Shown here: piece after piece, positions 10,991 to 45,766 of the stretch
How the letters are laid out: each line of letters starts with the position of its first letter
Numbering within the stretch: the stretch's first letter is position 1
NCBI GenBank assembly: GCA_947630055.1
Contig: CANRGA010000001.1
Span: forward strand, 10,195-74,194
Reading direction: 5' to 3'
Source of the DNA: an uncultured Bacilli bacterium
GTDB taxonomy: Bacteria; Bacillota_I; Bacilli_A; RF39; UBA660
DNA length: 64,000 bases
Translations under genes and position numbers: made by a program
Notes under the pieces: model-generated
Databases searched by the model: none
What the model saw: the letters and a program-made list of their open reading frames with translations, nothing else
What the model was told of the DNA's origin: nothing

Positions 10991-11269
10991 ATGAAAGAAG
11001 CAACAGGTGAATTAAATATGACAGTTGTAACAGTTGTAGCAATTGCAGCATTAGTAGCTTTCTTTTATTTAGTAATATGGCCAACTATTAAAACAGGTAT
11101 GGCATTAAACTCTGCTTGTAGTACATATGCATCAACTGGTGGTACAGTTACTTTAGATGATGGTGGTACTATTGTATGTACAAAGAAAACTGCAACAACA
11201 ACGGCAACATGTACTTACAATCCATCTGCAACCGAAGGTGGAAAACCACAAACTAAAAACTGTGAATAA
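10991..11269 (+). CDS. Small pilin-like protein (candidate major pilin 1)
   Basis: MKEATG|ELNMTVVTVVAIAALVAFFYLVIW: short charged leader ending in Gly, then a hydrophobic helix. Small Cys-containing globular tail. Confidence 0.55.
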   Translation: MKEATGELNMTVVTVVAIAALVAFFYLVIWPTIKTGMALNSACSTYASTGGTVTLDDGGTIVCTKKTATTTATCTYNPSATEGGKPQTKNCE

Positions 11270-11285
11270 TAGTGAGTAGTAATAT

Positions 11286-11552
11286 ATGAAAGAGACAACA
11301 GGTGAATTAAACGCTACTGTAGCAGTTATGTTAGCTATTGGTGTTTTAATAGCTTTTTTTTACTATACTTTGTGGCCACTTATTAAAAATAATTTCGATA
11401 AAAATTCTCAATGTAGTAAAGCTATATGTGAAAAATGCGATTTAAATGGTGATGGAAAAGCAGATGTTGGATGCGAAACAGTAACTTGTTATCCAAAAGG
11501 TGAAGAACATCAACCTGGTGTAAATGACTTTCAATGTGTCTATAAAGGTTAA
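11286..11552 (+). CDS. Small pilin-like protein (candidate major pilin 2, paralog)
   Basis: MKETTG|ELNATVAVMLAIGVLIAFFYYTLW; Cys-rich tail (six Cys). Confidence 0.55.
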   Translation: MKETTGELNATVAVMLAIGVLIAFFYYTLWPLIKNNFDKNSQCSKAICEKCDLNGDGKADVGCETVTCYPKGEEHQPGVNDFQCVYKG

Positions 11553-13735: not shown

Positions 13736-13800
13736 TACTGGATAATTTTGCTATATTGTGGTATTATATGAAACAATTGATTTTGAAGGGGTGTTTTGTT

Positions 13801-16800
13801 ATGAAATACGCAAAATATAAGTATATATTTATGTTATTTTTAGTGATCATTTTTTTACCATTTAAAGTTATGGCCAAAAATATTAATTTAGATATTGATA
13901 AATATGATTTAACTATTGGTGATGAAATAACAGTAAGTGTTAGTTTACCAGATGAAATAAAAGCTTATGCAGTTATGGCAACTTTTACTTATGATGAAAA
14001 TGTTTTTACTAAAATAGATATTGATGATTTTTCTATTTTAAATAAAAATTTAAATATTTCTTATAATGATAATACTAAAAAATTTGGTTTAATAAACGAA
14101 ACAGGTAAATTAGATAATGAATTATTTCAAGTTCATTTAAAAGTAAAGGAAAATGCTAATGTTGGCGATACTAATATAGCTTTAACAAATATAGTAGTGT
14201 CTGATGGAACAAAGAAAGAAGAATATAATAAGACTATTAAAACTATTTTAGTTACAAGAGATGCTAAGCCTGGTGAAGAAATACCTATTAATAAATCTAA
14301 TAAAGTAGAAGAAAGTAAAGAAATTGAAACTAAAGTATTTACATCTAAGCCGTTTATGATTACTTTAGGTATAAGTGCTATTGTAATTTTAGGATTAGTG
14401 ATTTATATTACCTTATTTAAAAAAGATAAAAAGACTTTAAAAAATATTCTTGTTGGTTGTGCAACTATTTTAACCATTTCTTTTGTAGTTATATATATAT
14501 TTAATATTAATAAAAGAGATGTTAATAATGATGGAGTTAAAGATTACAATGATGCAAAAGAAATACTTAAATATCTTTTAGATATTACAGGTACTGAAGA
14601 AATTGATAATAATAAAAATACTTCTAATAAAAAACCAAGTATTAACCCAAATAATAAATATGATGTTAATAATGATGGTAAAATTGATATAAATGATGTT
14701 GGTAATAATACGGAAAATGTTACTGAAAATACAAAAGTGATTTTAAAAGAAAAGAACGATAATAAAGATTTTTATGTCAAAAAAGGTGATATTACTTTAA
14801 AATTTACTGCAGAAATTACACCTAAAAATGTAACAATAACTAAAGTAAAAATTAATAATAAATATTATGATGTTATCAATAATAATGGCGAATATTCTGT
14901 TACTATAGAGTCTAATAAAGCAGGTAAATACGAATTTGCTATTACTAGTGTTATTTTATCTAATGGCAAAGAAATAAATGTTAAACTTAAATTTGTAAGA
15001 GAAGTTTTAAAAGTTACTCCTTATGTTAATAAATTTAATTTAAATGATGAAAAAGGTTCTTTAAGTTTTGAACTAGTAGATCCAGAAGATGCTTTTATTA
15101 GTGGTGAAGTTACTGTTTATGATGGTGAAAAAGTAATTGTCAAAGAAAATGTTAAAAGTACAACTAAAATTAATGATATTCCTATTGATGAAGATAAAAT
15201 TTATCGTTTAGAAGTAATGGGAGAATATGATTTAGATAGCAATAAAAATGATGATAATAATCATTTTACTAATCAAACTATGTTTAACCATTCCTTTATG
15301 ATAGGGGGAGATTATAACTTCACTTTAACTGATGTAGGAATTACAGATGCGATTAAAAAGGGTGAAAAGCCAGTTATAAGTTTTAAAAGTACAAATACTA
15401 AAGGAGTGACTGTTGAAAATGCTTCTTTAACTATTGGAAATAAAACTAATAATTATGTCATTAGTAAAATAGATGGTGATAATTATGAAGTTATTTTAGA
15501 AGATGCTGATACATCTGTAGGTAAACATAAAGTAAATTTAGATAGTGTTAGATTAAAATCTTTAAAGACGTTTAATAATAAAAAAGACTATGATGCTAAT
15601 ACACTAACTTATACTGTGTTAAAAGATTCGCCAAAAGTAACTAGTTTGAATGTAGAAGAAGATTCCGAAAATAAAAGTATTATTGCTAAATTTAGTATAA
15701 ATGATGAAAGTAGTGCTATTAGTAGTTTAAAAGTTGTTTTAGTAGATTCAACTGGAGCAGTTATTGCATCACAAATTTTAACAAGAGAAGAATACTTAGA
15801 AAAAGGTGAAGTATCACTATCTTATGATGGTAGTACAGATGGTAATTATAAAGTTAAAATTTTAGCTGATTATGCCCTAAGTGATCAATATAACTATACT
15901 GATAAACCAATTGGGGAAGAAGCAATTACAGTTAATACTGGTGTATATATTGAAGCTATTGAATATGTTGAAACAAAACAAAATAATCGTGTTATTGATA
16001 GTGGTAAATTTGCTAGTAAAGGCCAAAAAATGTATCGAATGAACTTTATCGTTCATACCAAAGGAATAAGATCATATTCACGTCTTTCATCTATTACGAT
16101 TAATGGTTTAAATTATATTGCTAATGGTGGAGCATCTGCCATAGAAAATGCTGAAGGTGAATATAGATATACCTCAACTGTTGCTATTACTGTGCCAAAA
16201 GAAGCAGGTATTATGACAATTACTGCTAATCGTGTTCAATTAGAAGTTAATAGTTATAATTACAAGGTTAATCAATTTTATCATGTTCCAGATGTATCTA
16301 AAGAATATGAAGTATTAAAAGATATTCCAAGTATTGCTAATTTAAAAATACAAAAAGAAGATTATGAAGCAAAAGAAGTTACTTTTAATTTTGATGTTAT
16401 CGACAAAGAAGATTCATTTATAAGTGGTAAATTAGAATTAAATGGTAAGAGTGAAGAGATAAATAAAGGTAATAATACAGTTACTTTTACTGGTATTGAA
16501 ACTGATAAAGTTCATGATTTGATTTTTAAAGCTGATTATAAATTAAGTACTGGTGAAATTGAAGATCCAATTAATCAAACAGAAAAAAGTAATGCGGAAA
16601 TATATAAAGTTAAATATGGTTTATATAAAGAAGATACTTATAATGATATTAAGATAAGTGAAATTACTCCAGTTAGTGAAAAGAACAATAAATATTTTGA
16701 AAAAAACGAAGATATTAAATTAAATCTTATTATTGTAGGCATTCCCGAGTATTTAAATGTTTATCCAGAAAGAGTTATTATTAATGATAAAGAATATGAT

Positions 16801-19800
16801 TCAAAAGCTTTAATGACTTGTCATGAAGTAACTTTAAAGGGTTATACTTCATCTGGTGAAAAAGAACTTAAAGTTAGTGCCATCATTTTAAATAATGGTA
16901 AAGTTATAACTTTAGATAAAGAAGTAACTATTGAAGTATTAAAAGATATACCAAAAATAACTGATTATAAATATTCTATTAATGATAATAGTATTAAAAT
17001 TACTTTAGCTAATAAAGATAGTGATTCATCTTTAGATGGTGATTTACAAGTTAAAGTTACTGATGATACAGGGAAAGAACTTTATAATAGTAAATATCAA
17101 GAGACAATTGAGTTTAAAAAGAATAAAGATGCTTTAAGATATTATATTTCTGTTATAGGTAGTTATGATAGAGATATTGATAAACAAGAAGATAGTGAAA
17201 ACTATAATAAAGATATTAAATTATTAGATGAAACTATTTCTCTAGATAAAAATAATATTGAATTAAAAGATATTACTTATATAACCTTATATAAAGAAGA
17301 AAATGATAAAATATTAGAGATTAGAGAAATAACTAAAGAAGAATTAGAACAAAATATTGAAAAATATTTTGTCGAAGTTAATATGGAAAATATGCCTTCT
17401 GTTTATGCTAAACTTAAAAAAGTTACTATTGAAGATAATCATTTAATGCTAATTTTAGATTATGAATATGTAACTAAAGAAGAAAGTAAATCTAAAGAAA
17501 TCAAAGTTGATTATGGGGCTATAATTAATGGTAAAGCAAAAAATGAAACTAATCCATTAAATGAATTTAATATCTTAAAAGAAAGAATTAAAAATAATGA
17601 ACATATCATTTTAACTCATGATTATGATTTAAAAGATATTGAAGTTACTACAAGTTATTATTTTGAAAACTTTAGTGGTTCAATTGATGGTAATGGTCAT
17701 AAAATAACTAATTTAAGTAAACAATTATTTAATGAACTTAGTAATGCGGAAATTAAAAATTTAATAGTAGAAAATGCTAATATAAGTGGTGCTGTTCGTG
17801 GTATTTTAGCCGATAAAGGTACAGATGTAGTAATTAATAATGTTCATTTATATAATGGTAATATTAAAGCTAATCTTGTTACTAATGGAACTGGTATTAT
17901 GTTTGGTGAAACAAGAAATAGTATAGAAATATCAAATTCATCAATTGTAAATAGTTCAGTTAGTGGTGGCAAAAGAACTGGTGGCTTTATTGGTCAAGCT
18001 TATAATAAAACAACGATTACTAATAGTTATATCAATGATAGTAGTGTAACTGGTAATAATGACGCTATTGGTGGCATTATTGGCGAAGTAAGTAGTGCTA
18101 ATAATGTTTCTATGACTAATTGTTATAGTAAAGTTACTATGGATGGTGGTGCTGGTAATGCTAAAGCTGGTATTTTAGGCTATACTAATAGTAGCGGTGC
18201 AACTAAATTAATTAATAGTTTAAGTATGTCTCAAGGAAATAGTGGTACGAGAGTATATGGTAATGGTATCTCTGCTACTAATGTCTATGAGTTAAAAGAA
18301 TCTACTATGAGATCGCAAGCTGGTGGCCAAATTAAAGAAATAACTGGTAATGATATTAATAAAGAATTCTTTATTAATTCATTAAATTGGGATGAAGAAG
18401 TGTGGAATTTAGATAATGTATCAGCTGATGTACCTCCTATTTTAAAAGGCGAAAAATTTGAGCCTGTGAAAAGCCCAATAGAAGCTGAAGATGGTTATGA
18501 TCCAAATAAAAGAATACTTTATAATAACTTAATGAAATTAATGCCTTTCTATGATAGTGAAAAAATAGTTAGAACTGGTATGCATATTACTGATAATAAT
18601 TTACTTAATAAAGAAATTCAACATATTGTGCCAATTGATAATAAAGGAAGTATTGTTACATATTTAACAAGTGATAATTTAAAGAAAATAAGTAAGATAA
18701 AAGTAGTATATAAAACGAAAGAAAAAGTTACTTATGATGTAAAATTTGATAATACTTATGATATGGTAGCAAGTTATCGTATACCTGATTTAAATATCGA
18801 TTATACTTATAACCATTATATTATTGATGCTAACTCTCAAGTAGTAAATAATATAACTAATTATTTAAAAGATTTAAGTTATACAAATAATTTAGATACT
18901 TTAACTGCTACTAAAGATAGTAGAATATTAAGAGATTTCTATAATGATGTTACTAGTAAAGAATTAAAAGAATTTACTTTAAAATATTTATCTAATAGTA
19001 ATTATACTAATACCACTAACAATGATAGTATTAATAGTCATTTGGAAAGTGAAATTAAAAAAGATAAAAAAATTGAAAAAGTATTATATATGTATAATTA
19101 CTTTAGAAGATTCTATGATGTTGAAATAGATGGTATGAAATTATATGATTTTATGCTATTTAACATGAATGGTTTTGATGAATCATTAACAAGCCAAATG
19201 ATAGCCCGTATTTATTTACAAGATGGTAATAACTTTAACACTGGTTCAACTGGTACTAAATATCGTGATTTACTAGGGGGTTATACTAAACTTAATACTA
19301 TTGCCAAATTCATCGAATATATGGTAACTGAATTTAGTAATGATAATATGAATGATTGGGTAAGGAAAGAATTTGCAGGTTACTTAGTAGAAATTCCAGT
19401 TAAAGGTCATGAAAAAGACATTCAATATACTTTATGGGATCACTTTAGTAATGAAGATGCTGTTTATAATAATCCACATAGAGCATATGATATGATGTTA
19501 CCAATTTTAACATTGCCAAAGAATGCAGCTTATATAATTTCTACGCCAGTTCAATTTATCATCGGGGCGCAAAGAAGTTATATTGAAGATCCAGAAGATC
19601 CTACTTCTCAAAGTATTTTCCAAAGAAGAGTTAAAAGCTACGCTAAGAGAATGGAAACTTATTTTGATACAGCTTATAAAATTTTAGGCGATGCAAAATA
19701 CTTTAATGATATTCATACTTTCCAACTTGATAAAAGATTTGCTTATGATGAAAATGGCGCAATGGTATATCAACAAGCCTATGTTACAGAGGAGCCATTC

Positions 19801-21174
19801 CATAAGAACTTTAATGAAGTAACTGGTCGTTGGCAAACAAGTGATGGTAATGCTGCTGTTGCTTGGGGAGATCGTATTGACTGGAGTGCAGAAGGTTTAA
19901 TGGATGGTAATATTGATCCAGATTTAGTTAGTGTTTTAAATAAACAAATTCAAGAATATACTTATCATACCTTTACGCATGAAACAGCCCATAATATTGA
20001 TGCTAGACTATTCTTAAAAAATAATGGTAGAAGATTTGATGCTGGAGGAGAAGATTATGCTGATAGTAATCTAATGCAATCTTTTGGACCAAATGATATA
20101 GTTATGAATTTATCAACTTATCGTAATGGTGAAAAAATTGCTTCAAATTATACTCCAGATCGAATTAACTCACCAGAAAAAATTCAAAGTTACTATGATA
20201 AAGTATTCCAAACTATCTATGTAATGGATTATATTGAAGCAGAGGCTTTCTTACAACTTCCTAAAGAAGTTCAAGCAAATTTAGCAGTTCAAGTATCTTA
20301 TCCAAATGAAAATTTACAATTTGAAACTTTAGAAGATGGTAAAACTTTCACTGGACCAACTTATAAAGAAGATCCTTATGCTATTTTTAGAGCCCGTCAA
20401 ACATCAAGATTTACTCAATTAAGTGAAATACCAGATGTATTTAATCAAATGAAACTTACATCAATTAATGATTTAATTGATAATCATATTATGATTTATC
20501 CGGGTATTTATAAAGTAGGATCTAGAGGGTCTAACTCTTATGGCGGTGAAGGCATTGGTCATGTTCACTGGTATCAACCATGGAATCCAGAAGGAAGACC
20601 TGATTCATACGCAATTAAATGGATTGCTTATGAAATGCTTGGTTTAAAAGGATATGATGAAGGTTATATTGAGTATTATAGTAATATAAATTCAACACCA
20701 AGAGAAATTTATAAAAACTTATCTAAGCCTAAAGAAGGTAAATCAACCGTTAATTATAAAACTGATTCTATGGCATTAAGTAGAATAACTGAAGGTAGAT
20801 TTGATGATTTTGATAAGTATAAGAAATATCGTTTTGCAGAAACTAAAGCAAAATTAGATAAACTTAATGCCAAAGTTAATGTAAAACAATATGTTCAAAA
20901 ATTATATGATGCTTTACTTGAAGATAATGAATATTCTAAAACAAGATTAGAATCATTACTTCAAGCATATAAAACTGATGAAAAAGGTTGCTTAGGTAGT
21001 TATTGGTGTGCCAGAGGAATATCTGGTGAAGTTAGAGGTTTCTTAAAAAGTACTGCTGTAAGACAAGAAATATATTATACTTTAAAAGATTTAACAAATG
21101 ATTTTGAAGGTGAAATATTTGAAAAAACTACTCAACAAAATGTCAGCGATTTAACTGTTAATAAAGGTGAATAA
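13801..21174 (+). CDS. Giant surface Zn-metalloprotease, ZmpA/B/C (peptidase M26)-like, with cohesin-like and dockerin-like modules
   Basis: Signal peptide MKYAKYKYIFMLFLVIIFLPFKVMA, with RBS GAAGGGG 9 nt upstream. Cohesin-like N-domain and two TM helices. EF-hand dockerin-like DVNNDGVKDYND / DVNNDGKIDIND. Multiple Ig-like repeats. GLUG-type motifs (GGFIGQAYN.., IGGIIGEVS). HExxH site HTFTHETAHNID. Confidence 0.75.
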   Translation: MKYAKYKYIFMLFLVIIFLPFKVMAKNINLDIDKYDLTIGDEITVSVSLPDEIKAYAVMATFTYDENVFTKIDIDDFSILNKNLNISYNDNTKKFGLINETGKLDNELFQVHLKVKENANVGDTNIALTNIVVSDGTKKEEYNKTIKTILVTRDAKPGEEIPINKSNKVEESKEIETKVFTSKPFMITLGISAIVILGLVIYITLFKKDKKTLKNILVGCATILTISFVVIYIFNINKRDVNNDGVKDYNDAKEILKYLLDITGTEEIDNNKNTSNKKPSINPNNKYDVNNDGKIDINDVGNNTENVTENTKVILKEKNDNKDFYVKKGDITLKFTAEITPKNVTITKVKINNKYYDVINNNGEYSVTIESNKAGKYEFAITSVILSNGKEINVKLKFVREVLKVTPYVNKFNLNDEKGSLSFELVDPEDAFISGEVTVYDGEKVIVKENVKSTTKINDIPIDEDKIYRLEVMGEYDLDSNKNDDNNHFTNQTMFNHSFMIGGDYNFTLTDVGITDAIKKGEKPVISFKSTNTKGVTVENASLTIGNKTNNYVISKIDGDNYEVILEDADTSVGKHKVNLDSVRLKSLKTFNNKKDYDANTLTYTVLKDSPKVTSLNVEEDSENKSIIAKFSINDESSAISSLKVVLVDSTGAVIASQILTREEYLEKGEVSLSYDGSTDGNYKVKILADYALSDQYNYTDKPIGEEAITVNTGVYIEAIEYVETKQNNRVIDSGKFASKGQKMYRMNFIVHTKGIRSYSRLSSITINGLNYIANGGASAIENAEGEYRYTSTVAITVPKEAGIMTITANRVQLEVNSYNYKVNQFYHVPDVSKEYEVLKDIPSIANLKIQKEDYEAKEVTFNFDVIDKEDSFISGKLELNGKSEEINKGNNTVTFTGIETDKVHDLIFKADYKLSTGEIEDPINQTEKSNAEIYKVKYGLYKEDTYNDIKISEITPVSEKNNKYFEKNEDIKLNLIIVGIPEYLNVYPERVIINDKEYDSKALMTCHEVTLKGYTSSGEKELKVSAIILNNGKVITLDKEVTIEVLKDIPKITDYKYSINDNSIKITLANKDSDSSLDGDLQVKVTDDTGKELYNSKYQETIEFKKNKDALRYYISVIGSYDRDIDKQEDSENYNKDIKLLDETISLDKNNIELKDITYITLYKEENDKILEIREITKEELEQNIEKYFVEVNMENMPSVYAKLKKVTIEDNHLMLILDYEYVTKEESKSKEIKVDYGAIINGKAKNETNPLNEFNILKERIKNNEHIILTHDYDLKDIEVTTSYYFENFSGSIDGNGHKITNLSKQLFNELSNAEIKNLIVENANISGAVRGILADKGTDVVINNVHLYNGNIKANLVTNGTGIMFGETRNSIEISNSSIVNSSVSGGKRTGGFIGQAYNKTTITNSYINDSSVTGNNDAIGGIIGEVSSANNVSMTNCYSKVTMDGGAGNAKAGILGYTNSSGATKLINSLSMSQGNSGTRVYGNGISATNVYELKESTMRSQAGGQIKEITGNDINKEFFINSLNWDEEVWNLDNVSADVPPILKGEKFEPVKSPIEAEDGYDPNKRILYNNLMKLMPFYDSEKIVRTGMHITDNNLLNKEIQHIVPIDNKGSIVTYLTSDNLKKISKIKVVYKTKEKVTYDVKFDNTYDMVASYRIPDLNIDYTYNHYIIDANSQVVNNITNYLKDLSYTNNLDTLTATKDSRILRDFYNDVTSKELKEFTLKYLSNSNYTNTTNNDSINSHLESEIKKDKKIEKVLYMYNYFRRFYDVEIDGMKLYDFMLFNMNGFDESLTSQMIARIYLQDGNNFNTGSTGTKYRDLLGGYTKLNTIAKFIEYMVTEFSNDNMNDWVRKEFAGYLVEIPVKGHEKDIQYTLWDHFSNEDAVYNNPHRAYDMMLPILTLPKNAAYIISTPVQFIIGAQRSYIEDPEDPTSQSIFQRRVKSYAKRMETYFDTAYKILGDAKYFNDIHTFQLDKRFAYDENGAMVYQQAYVTEEPFHKNFNEVTGRWQTSDGNAAVAWGDRIDWSAEGLMDGNIDPDLVSVLNKQIQEYTYHTFTHETAHNIDARLFLKNNGRRFDAGGEDYADSNLMQSFGPNDIVMNLSTYRNGEKIASNYTPDRINSPEKIQSYYDKVFQTIYVMDYIEAEAFLQLPKEVQANLAVQVSYPNENLQFETLEDGKTFTGPTYKEDPYAIFRARQTSRFTQLSEIPDVFNQMKLTSINDLIDNHIMIYPGIYKVGSRGSNSYGGEGIGHVHWYQPWNPEGRPDSYAIKWIAYEMLGLKGYDEGYIEYYSNINSTPREIYKNLSKPKEGKSTVNYKTDSMALSRITEGRFDDFDKYKKYRFAETKAKLDKLNAKVNVKQYVQKLYDALLEDNEYSKTRLESLLQAYKTDEKGCLGSYWCARGISGEVRGFLKSTAVRQEIYYTLKDLTNDFEGEIFEKTTQQNVSDLTVNKGE

Positions 21175-44557: not shown

Positions 44558-44610
44558 ATTAATGAACACGAAAGTGTTTTTTAATTGCAAAAGTTTTAAT
44601 GGAGGTTAAA

Positions 44611-44907
44611 ATGGCAAAAAAAGTAAAAGAAGAAAAAACAAAAGAAGTAAAAAATGCTAACAAAGTTGTTAAAGAGAAAAAGACAAAGTTAGCAAAAAAT
44701 ACTAAAAAAACAAATGATAAGAAACCAAAAGTAAAAAAAGAAGGCTTTATTAAAGGCATCAAAAAAGAACTAAAATTAGTTAAATGGCCTGATGCCAAAG
44801 AAATTATTAAATATACAATTGCGACAATTGTATTTTGTATCATTTTAGTAGCGTTCTTTGAGCTTTTAAATGTTATCTTAGCATATATAAAGGGGTTGTT
44901 TAACTAA
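44611..44907 (+). CDS. secE: Preprotein translocase subunit SecE (Lys-rich N-terminal extension)
   Basis: C-terminus KGIKKELKLVKWPDAKEIIKYTIATIVFCIILVAFFELLN. Immediately precedes nusG. ATG follows GGAGG. Confidence 0.85.
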   Translation: MAKKVKEEKTKEVKNANKVVKEKKTKLAKNTKKTNDKKPKVKKEGFIKGIKKELKLVKWPDAKEIIKYTIATIVFCIILVAFFELLNVILAYIKGLFN

Positions 44908-45443
44908 TGGGCGAAAAATTATGGTATGTTGTTAACACTTATTCAGGTCATGAACAAAAGGTTAAAGAAAAACTAGAAGCAAAAATTGAATCAATGGGAA
45001 TGCAAGATTATATCTTTAGAATAGTTATACCGGAAACTAAAGAAGTTGAAGTTAAAGATGGTGTAAAAAAAGAAAAAATTAAAAAAATGTTCCCAGGATA
45101 TATTTTAGTAGAAATGATTATGTCTGATGAAGCATGGTATATAGTCAGAAATACACCAGGTGTAACTGGATTTATTGGTTCATCTGGTAAAGGTGCTAAG
45201 CCTACGCCATTACTTCCACAAGAAATAGATCGTATTTTAGTTAATATGGGTATGAGTCGTGTTAATGTTGAAGATGACTTAAAAGTTGGCGATAGTGTAA
45301 GTATTATTGATGGACCATTCAAAGGTATGATGGGTAAAGTTGATAATATCGATCTTGAAAATAATCGTCTTAATATTATCATTGATTTATTTGGTCAAGA
45401 AACATCTGTTGATGTTGAATTGTTCCAAGTTAGTAAAAATTAA
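44907..45443 (+). CDS. nusG: Transcription termination/antitermination factor NusG
   Basis: NGN motif WYVVNTYSGHEQKV and KOW motif GDSVSIIDGPFKGMMGKV. Confidence 0.95.
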   Translation: MGEKLWYVVNTYSGHEQKVKEKLEAKIESMGMQDYIFRIVIPETKEVEVKDGVKKEKIKKMFPGYILVEMIMSDEAWYIVRNTPGVTGFIGSSGKGAKPTPLLPQEIDRILVNMGMSRVNVEDDLKVGDSVSIIDGPFKGMMGKVDNIDLENNRLNIIIDLFGQETSVDVELFQVSKN

Positions 45444-45513
45444 GGGCTATTTTTAGCTCTTTTTTAATAAAATAGGAAAGTTATATAAAAAGTCAAATAA
45501 GCTGTTGCCAATC

Positions 45514-45727
45514 GTTTGTTTGTATGACACAATTATATTGTCCAGGAGGTAATGTTATGTTGATTAGTCGAGTGAAAAAAATATAAAATAAAAACAAGTA
45601 CGGCAGCGACTGTCGGAAATATGGCCTGTGGAGGAGTAAAATCCAAAGAAGCAGGAAAGATAAGCCGTGAGGCTTATCAAAGTGAAATGAAATAAATTTT
45701 AATTTATTGAATTTTACTTTTGTTCTA
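45514..45727 (+). mobile_element. tnpB-less miniature derivative of the IS200/IS605-type element found at 59716-61061
   Basis: Left part tttgtttgtatgacacaattatattgtccaggaggtaatgttatgttgattagtcgagtg aligns with 59716-59775. Right part aaacaagtacggcagcgactgtcggaaatatggcctgtggagg...ttttgttcta aligns with 60927-61061. The tnpB body is deleted. Confidence 0.8.
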
Positions 45728-45747
45728 TAAATTTGAAATATGATATA
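45590..45747 (+). ncRNA. Omega-RNA (reRNA)-like scaffold of the miniature element plus ~20 nt putative guide
   Basis: Conserved with the region 3' of tnpB at 60927-61061, including the hairpin gataagcc-gtga-ggcttatc. Homology stops at 45727. Confidence 0.45.
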
Positions 45748-45766
45748 CTAAGGTAAGAAATTTGAA

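Follow-up and report, generated by a model that had tools for sequence, protein, structure and literature searches.

Results

Genes and features at the nusG locus

The window, which is the whole 64-kb stretch of DNA that was analysed, has a G+C content of 26.5%. On its plus strand, secE (44599-44907; Pfam SecE, 6e-13) lies upstream of nusG (44907-45443; 178 aa; Pfam NusG, 1.6e-30, plus KOW). A terminator scan placed an intrinsic terminator of nusG, with an 8-bp stem plus a T-run, at 45442-45467 (+). An equivalent hairpin plus T-run is present in the strains in which the site described below is empty. A mini element of 252 nt follows at 45474-45725 (+). It is succeeded by a gene of the UDG superfamily (45767-46354, +; Pfam UDG, 1.7e-19), whose likely true start is the GTG at 45779 and whose orthologue in L001, one of the empty-site strains, is 96% identical. 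Next come an ORF of 55 aa (46410-46577) and an inverted ABC operon (46613-49123), in which Pfam identified a permease, an ATPase and an NMT1-type binding protein. The 55-aa ORF showed 39% identity over 49 aa to residues 30-78, in the N-terminal part, of a RhuM-family protein from another strain, and the empty-site strains also carry its equivalent. A preliminary description of this DNA had named a UDG-like gene, a RhuM fragment and an inverted ABC operon beyond nusG. The first and the last were borne out by Pfam, and for the second, the ORF at 46410-46577 is similar to RhuM-family proteins in their N-terminal part.

Anatomy of the mini element

The mini element consists of a left end, a promoter-like site, an RBS, a tnpB stub, a scaffold and a right end. 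Its bounds were taken from at least 20 copies at different loci, which become alike at AGGAAAG and diverge after TTGTTC, and from the empty site in L001, L004 and L007. Both ends were aligned by blastn with a full-length element in the same window. The right end (45575-45727) was 90.4% identical over 156 columns (E 9e-52) to 60908-61061, the stretch of the full element from the tnpB stop to the right end. The left end (45460-45561) was just 72.6% identical (E 3e-7) to 59661-59764, where the full element has its left end and the tnpB start. Homology begins at AGGAAAGTT, where position 45474 corresponds to 59675. It had been claimed that 45514-45727 aligns to both ends of 59716-61061; the match to both ends stood, and the bounds shift to 45474-45725 and 59675-61059.

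A TAM-like pentamer, AAAAT (45469-45473, +), abuts the left end, where the left flanks of 26 copies give the family consensus ATAAT. A promoter-like site, TTGCCA-17-CACAAT with a TG extension, was located at 45505-45533 (+) by a scan and by a left-end alignment of 25 copies. It occupies the position of the conserved TTGACA-17-TATAAT of the family, which is the best-conserved left-end block in this alignment. The site in the window mini is the most degenerate of the family, with a -10 of CACAAT versus TACAAT in its siblings L044 and L062. Alignments to the tnpB start placed the RBS and a remnant ORF at 45544-45586 (+). The RBS, AGGAGG, lies at 45544-45549, and the start homologous to tnpB (ATG TTG ATT AGT CGA G) at 45557-45572. 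The remnant ORF (45557-45586) has 9 codons (MLISRVKKI*), with tnpB homology limited to the first ~5. The internal deletion junction (45572-45575, +) joins tnpB codon ~6 to the 3' UTR just past the tnpB stop; it was defined by the ends of the blastn segments and is the same in L044 and L062. An A-rich linker separates this junction from the omega-RNA-like scaffold (45598-45725, +), which has five helices with the first pair at 45601. The scaffold was identified by a covariance model, covariation and fold energy (z = -4.55), and the model match spans positions 1-143 at 168 bits. No internal terminator was predicted within the mini by the terminator scan. The element has kept both ends, and its coding capacity is limited to the 9-codon stub ORF. 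All 29 of the model pairs are intact and both ends are homologous to the full copy, which confirms the proposed tnpB-less miniature IS with a complete omega-RNA-like scaffold. The reported retention of the RBS and the first tnpB codons was likewise seen.

Neither blastn nor the covariance model with filters off found a third copy in the 64-kb window. The model scored 168 bits for the mini, 151 bits for the full copy and 15.8 bits for the next best match, and the two copies named in the preliminary description are thus the only ones. The possibility that the mini is a derivative of the neighbouring full copy was considered and rejected, because the left ends are just 73% identical and the scaffold of the mini is closer to those of L044, L040 and L049. 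The scaffolds of the mini and the window full copy differ at 13 of ~130 positions, several of which are compensatory or in loops.

At the right end, conservation stops with the C of GTTC at 45725. The putative guide therefore starts at 45726 (TATAAATTTGAAATAT...). By analogy in position with TnpB omega-RNAs, the predicted guide segment is the flank TATAAATTTGAAATATGATA (45726-45745, +). Use of the flank as a guide had been suggested before; the putative guide lies where expected, with its start 2 nt to the left of the string given earlier. The 16-nt guide core, ATAAATTTGAAATATG (45727-45742), had no non-self match with fewer than two mismatches in the window. When up to three mismatches were allowed, 8 matches were found versus 15.6 expected by chance, and the only exact one was the core itself. 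The predicted guide segment overlaps a putative extended -10 of the UDG gene (TGnTATACT, 45741-45749). We also observed that the right end supplies a TTGTTC hexamer ~18 nt upstream of this extended -10, at the position of a -35 box.

The full-length element and its TnpB

The full-length element is an IS1341-type element of 1385 nt (59675-61059, +), with tnpB at 59760-60905 and the scaffold at 60933-61059. Its TnpB has 381 aa, contains the Pfam domains HTH_OrfB_IS605, OrfB_IS605 and Cas12f1-like_TNB, and passes NCBIfam guided_TnpB with 281 bits (cutoff 100). The protein aligned over its whole length to the ISDra2 TnpB structures (E 8e-55). In the alignment to TnpB structures, the RuvC residues D190, E274 and D359 and a zinc finger of two CxxC pairs were present. 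Judged from its sequence, the resident TnpB looks catalytically intact, and the full-length parent is classified as a member of the IS1341 (tnpB-only) group of the IS200/IS605 family.

When 59675-61059 was excised in silico (59674 joined to 61060), the flanks fused seamlessly into one ORF of 161 aa. The restored ORF matched NCBIfam CptIN at positions 1-150 of 150 (127.6 bits); the downstream piece alone matched positions 39-150 only (104.8 bits). Since exact removal restores a CptIN toxin ORF, these bounds are independently supported. No empty site was found for the full-length copy, and all eight related contigs are occupied or end inside tnpB. The element interrupts a type III toxin-antitoxin locus (59458-61484), in which the CptIN-family toxin gene is split after ~21 codons. 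A 50-nt x 2.0 tandem repeat at 59458-59558 is a candidate antitoxin RNA, followed by a terminator and then by the split toxin gene. The putative guide of the full-length IS would target the intact toxin allele.

Conservation and folding of the scaffold

The ~130-nt scaffold block runs from the tnpB stop to the right end, on the tnpB strand. It follows TnpB genes whose products range from 67 to 99% identity to the window TnpB. Compensatory changes were visible in the blocks 3' of the genes with 87%, 72% and 67% identity. RNAalifold on 49 aligned copies gave five helices with 29 pairs. Paired cells amounted to 97.8% over these copies versus 34-47% when the partners were slid by 1-3 columns. Compensatory double-sided changes occurred in 16 of the 29 pairs, with 98 doubly changed cells versus 20 in shuffles, and none of 500 shuffles reached the observed covariation values. 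A single G-U pair is invariant, and at several other pairs G-U and A-U replace each other, which points to an RNA on this strand and not to a DNA hairpin. Both window copies fold to the same four-hairpin shape (z = -4.55 and -4.71). Base pairing was 97.7% in the minis versus 97.3% in the full copies. On these comparisons, the omega-RNA-like scaffold is a conserved structured RNA. At the Rfam gathering score, the sole match in the window was a tRNA and no family covered the scaffold; at a permissive threshold, nothing relevant was found at E <= 10 in 45400-45800. As DNA, the right end also forms strong hairpins (z -4.4 to -4.6), in which the last two helices are included. No left-end DNA hairpin stood above shuffles (z -0.33 and +0.78).

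Empty sites and target preference

In this study, we found that the site occupied by the mini is empty in L001, L004 and L007, whose NusG is 100% identical to that of the window. There, nusG and its terminator are followed by TTTTTTTTAATATAAT^TTTTGAAATATGATATAC and the UDG gene, with a 76-bp spacer and no element. The order of nusG, UDG gene, small ORF and inverted ABC operon is the same as in the window. L002 is identical to the window and occupied, and its contig breaks inside the mini. The empty-site strains differ from the window by a 4-5-nt indel at the joint and in the terminator stem, so that the base-exact donor joint and a match to TAM plus guide could not be reconstructed. A new insertion and a precise excision from an older occupied state are indistinguishable here.

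All 26 copies with an aligned left flank start directly behind a T-run plus RTRYAAT and end in TTGTTC. The flanks read T4-8 plus RTRYAAT, with ATAAT as the commonest last pentamer. A target-site duplication was looked for in ~20 copies and was absent. Most insertions of the family lie directly behind an intrinsic terminator, and at nusG the T-run motif of the mini is the tail of the nusG terminator. Since the T4-8 plus RTRYAAT target is usually a terminator tail, insertions fall in the gap from a terminator to the gene that follows. The window full copy lies inside a coding region, yet a T-run plus ATCTTAT is present there. In these alignments, the target preference is much longer than a 5-nt TAM. 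The AAAAT of the window mini makes it the only one of the 26 copies with A at position -4. If excision and cleavage depend on this motif, as they do in studied IS200/IS605 elements, this copy may no longer be able to move. With its CACAAT -10 and atypical AAAAT, the window mini may thus yield little RNA or be immobile.

Another derivative was found at the same spot in a different species, L038, whose NusG is 91% identical. At 3380-3850 of L038 (minus strand), a class-C derivative of another subfamily (see below), with its tnpB codons fused in frame, lies right after the TTTTTTTTATATAAT of the nusG terminator. Its place at nusG reflects either a recurrent target or an old shared insertion, and suggests a preferred site rather than a shared rearrangement.

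Copies in related genomes

A degenerate 39-nt scaffold pattern was scanned against one genome per GTDB species. The count of further scaffold copies that the preliminary description had proposed came to 51 loci among these species-representative genomes. They lie in 18 MAGs, all labelled 'uncultured Bacilli bacterium' and all from rabbit gut. The scaffold pattern had no match in viral contigs and none in JGI metagenome contigs, and a class-A junction pattern had none in metagenome contigs. Left-end matches were used to measure the element lengths at the 51 loci. Minis of 219-257 nt without a tnpB remnant accounted for ~19 loci, and intermediate internal-deletion derivatives of ~290-730 nt for 12; the remaining loci were full-length (~1360-1410 nt) or truncated at the end of a contig. 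The same MAGs contain both minis and tnpB copies. In more than 30 deletion derivatives, no deletion extends into the scaffold from the 5' side.

The derivatives fall into classes by their deletion. In class A, the window type, the RBS and ~6 codons are joined to the 3' UTR, and the copies are the window mini, L044 and L062. In class B, a left end that carries a perfect TTGACA-17-TATAAT is joined ~25 nt later to the scaffold, with neither RBS nor ATG. These minis of ~220-235 nt are the commonest form, with ~14 copies in several MAGs (L024, L025, L027, L028, L032, L034, L035/L058, L039, L045, L048, L050, L053, L057 and L060), and exceed the tnpB copy number in some MAGs. L048, L057 and L060 are visibly decaying. 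Class C keeps 11 N-terminal and ~28 C-terminal tnpB codons; one MAG holds at least 5 copies, of which L038 is one.

The class-A junction, ...TTAGTCGAG(T/C)GAA..AAATATAAAATAAAAA.AAGTACGG, is identical in L044 and L062, and their flanks are unrelated. Both loci come from the sister MAG GCA_947588795, whose NusG is 100% identical to that of the window and which has no element at its own nusG site. Over its full length, the window mini is ~97% identical to L044, with exactly the same junction. The two differ at 1 of ~130 scaffold positions, where pairing is preserved, and at ~7 of 124 positions in the left part. The presence of the same deletion product at other loci indicates that the deletion predates the insertion at nusG and that the mini transposed as a mini. 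The window mini was thus mobile after its deletion, with an occupancy that is polymorphic among near-identical strains. The scaffolds behind a tnpB gene 91% identical to that of the window (L049) and behind a partial copy (L040) show 5-6 differences from that of the mini. A crude HUH/Y motif scan of 445 kb (the window plus 73 loci) found no Y1 TnpA, which is a weak negative.

L002 ends inside the mini at window position ~45583, and contigs L068-L071 of the same strain end inside the mini or tnpB. These contig ends show that repeats of this family fragment short-read assemblies of this organism.

Absence of rplK-rplA downstream of nusG

The preliminary description had stated that rplK-rplA does not follow nusG and had taken the locus for a rearrangement breakpoint. 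The first statement is correct, as tblastn found neither rplK nor rplA in the 64-kb window. The second was contradicted by L001, L004 and L007, in which the order nusG-UDG-small ORF-ABC occurs without an IS. Since these strains have an identical NusG, the absence of rplK-rplA after nusG is a lineage trait, and the mini is unrelated to it. The two genes, sought elsewhere as had been advised, were found away from nusG in a related MAG (L025). At 4589-7336 of L025, ORFs of 166 and 123 aa come after rplK and rplA, whose products are 57% identical to those of B. subtilis. A class-B mini lies just behind the terminator of this cluster, and nusG was not found within 660 nt upstream of the L025 rplK-rplA genes. 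The cargo after an identical NusG also varies: L005 carries a RhuM-family gene at this place, and L003 and L010 carry unrelated ones. The locus downstream of nusG is thus a variable spot regardless of the IS.

Discussion

In our view, 45474-45725 is an IS1341-type IS200/IS605 element that internal deletion has reduced to a non-autonomous, MITE/PATE-like derivative, and it is probably served in trans by TnpA and TnpB. In the established model of IS200/IS605 elements, single strands are excised and inserted beside the TAM by a Y1 TnpA. TnpB, loaded with the omega-RNA scaffold and its flank-derived guide, cuts the donor joint that was vacated, and the element is restored by recombination. The mini would be mobilised in trans by a Y1 TnpA encoded elsewhere. 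Like its relatives, it inserted with no target duplication and directly 3' of a T-run plus an ATAAT-like motif. Its own left-end promoter would drive an RNA of ~200 nt whose 3' end is the flank. The TnpB of a full copy, such as 59760-60905, would bind this RNA, and the complex would cut the vacated site (TAM plus guide match) after excision, so that recombination would restore the mini. The mini would then be a parasite of the retention or homing function of TnpB.

Because the ends, promoter and scaffold are all kept, the mini could use both proteins in trans. Loading of its RNA by the resident TnpB is plausible, since this protein looks catalytically intact with respect to the RuvC triad and the zinc finger. 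The compatibility of the mini scaffold with the resident TnpB is assumed here; it is plausible, because the L049 and L040 scaffolds have only 5-6 differences from the mini and several of the 13 differences from the window full copy are compensatory or in loops. Counting against this explanation are the CACAAT -10, the AAAAT pentamer, the left-end hairpin at z = -0.33, the lack of a Y1 TnpA in the crude scan and the 13 scaffold differences themselves.

An alternative, which we regard as unlikely though deserving some weight, is that the mini is mobile and its RNA inert. It would be a hitch-hiker on the transposase, with the scaffold kept for the right-end DNA or through youth, and with no TnpB loading or homing. 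The last two helices fold as DNA too (z about -4.5), and part of the conservation could serve the transposase; likewise, the decay of L048, L057 and L060 and the weakened -10 and odd TAM of the window copy would fit an inert RNA. However, the ~130-nt scaffold is complete in every deletion class, and this holds even for helices 1-3, at a distance of ~60-125 nt from the right end. Selection on the RNA part is supported by the retention of the scaffold 5' boundary in all of the more than 30 derivatives, by pairing in the minis as good as in the full copies, and by the comparison of the window mini with L044, in which the scaffold has a single difference versus ~7 in the left part. The G-U pairs, one of them invariant, and the strand-specific pairing also argue for constraint at the RNA level. 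The good preservation of the minis could instead reflect their youth. Standalone omega-RNAs have been shown to function in trans in this superfamily, according to PMC10691335.

A bolder extension of the preferred reading is that the minis of rabbit-gut Bacilli form a selected, promoter-equipped and dispersed guide-RNA repertoire that outnumbers tnpB. They would be hyperparasites that capture TnpB for their own retention, with possible RNA-guided or promoter effects on downstream genes. The preference for a terminator-proximal T-run plus ATAAT would then account for the repeated occupation of the site after nusG in different species. We find this reading quite doubtful.

It is very unlikely that the cis effect is the main one, with the mini acting as a mobile promoter or 5' leader that reads through the scaffold into the UDG gene and replaces or boosts a native promoter whose upstream half was displaced. 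No terminator is predicted inside the mini, which ends 41-53 nt before the UDG start and adjoins the putative extended -10. Many members of the family are placed between a terminator and the RBS of the gene that follows, and class-B minis carry the perfect TTGACA-17-TATAAT. However, the empty-site strains have the same UDG gene and no mini, the position is accounted for by the preference for a T-run plus ATAAT, and the promoter of the window copy is the weakest of the family. Such an effect is also compatible with the RNA-guide role and does not exclude it.

It is scarcely credible that a full-length IS after nusG lost its tnpB in situ and marks or caused a rearrangement that removed rplK-rplA: the region downstream of nusG does vary between strains (UDG, RhuM, other cargo) and L038 carries another derivative at the same place in another species, but the deletion predates the insertion, as its junction recurs at two other loci, the nusG-UDG-ABC order exists without an IS in L001, L004 and L007, and we know of no IS200/IS605 mechanism that yields flanking rearrangements of this sort. 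IS200/IS605 elements excise and insert precisely as single strands.

The kind of element is already described, and what is new is the sequence family, the host clade and the details. Mobilised standalone omega-RNAs have neither effector nor transposase, are found alongside effector loci and act in trans, as stated in PMC10691335, citing Altae-Tran 2021. PATE-like minimal IS200/IS605 elements of Geobacillus stearothermophilus 'often encode omega-RNAs' and need TnpB in trans (Meers et al., 10.1101/2023.03.14.532601). The element at 45474-45725 shows the testable features of standalone omega-RNAs and PATE-like minis. It has no protein gene, both ends, and an omega-RNA scaffold with a flank-derived guide, which is predicted here. 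As with those elements, tnpB copies are present in the same genomes, mobilisation is evident, and service by TnpA and TnpB in trans is presumed. In contrast to them, it belongs to another sequence family that has no Rfam model and whose scaffold is confined to rabbit-gut Bacilli MAGs. The present scaffold also lies wholly downstream of the tnpB stop, at least 3 separate deletion classes have each been amplified, and the family targets a terminator-proximal T-run plus ATAAT.

The resident TnpB is homologous to that of ISDra2 (PDB 8EXA, 8H1J; E 8e-55), with the same RuvC triad and zinc finger. Both elements have a 3' structured RNA beside the right end, a flank guide and an A/T-rich 5-nt motif at the left end. 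Unlike ISDra2, which has tnpA, the present element contains none. The omega-RNA of ISDra2 overlaps the tnpB 3' coding region, whereas the present scaffold is intergenic; the TAM-like motif is ATAAT versus TTGAT, and the mini also lacks tnpB. As in the IS1341 group, the full parent (59675-61059) encodes TnpB alone between conserved ends, with no target duplication; the mini is further reduced and has lost tnpB as well. The mini resembles the classical MITEs (Correia, RUP, ERIC) in being short, non-coding, multi-copy, intergenic and mobilised in trans, with outward promoters possible. Those elements, however, have terminal inverted repeats, target-site duplications and a DDE transposon origin, whereas the mini has asymmetric ends, no duplication and a guide-RNA scaffold.

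The mini leaves the known working of these elements unchanged. It is a clear natural case of a TnpB guide-RNA scaffold persisting and spreading in the absence of the nuclease gene, backed by an empty site, shared deletion junctions and strong covariation in a scaffold family absent from Rfam. For annotation, it accounts for ~250-nt repeats that break assemblies and are otherwise unexplained. It may also provide a compact natural TnpB/omega-RNA pair for trans-loading work.

Other features of the window

Further regions of the window carry repeats. An ORF of 856 aa (53291-55861) consists mostly of 36-nt (12-codon) tandem repeats rich in Asp, Asn, Gly and Cys (...CDLNCDTNNDGK...), with a higher-order period of 321 nt. 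Motifs similar to these repeats occur in the ORFs at 10991-11552 and in an ORF of 2472 aa (13756-21174). On the minus strand at 89-2044, adjacent ORFs of 392 and 195 aa have several repeated segments in common, with 80-95% identity and spacings of 420, 594 and 1014 nt. By their sequences, the two ORFs look like recently duplicated or recombining paralogues.
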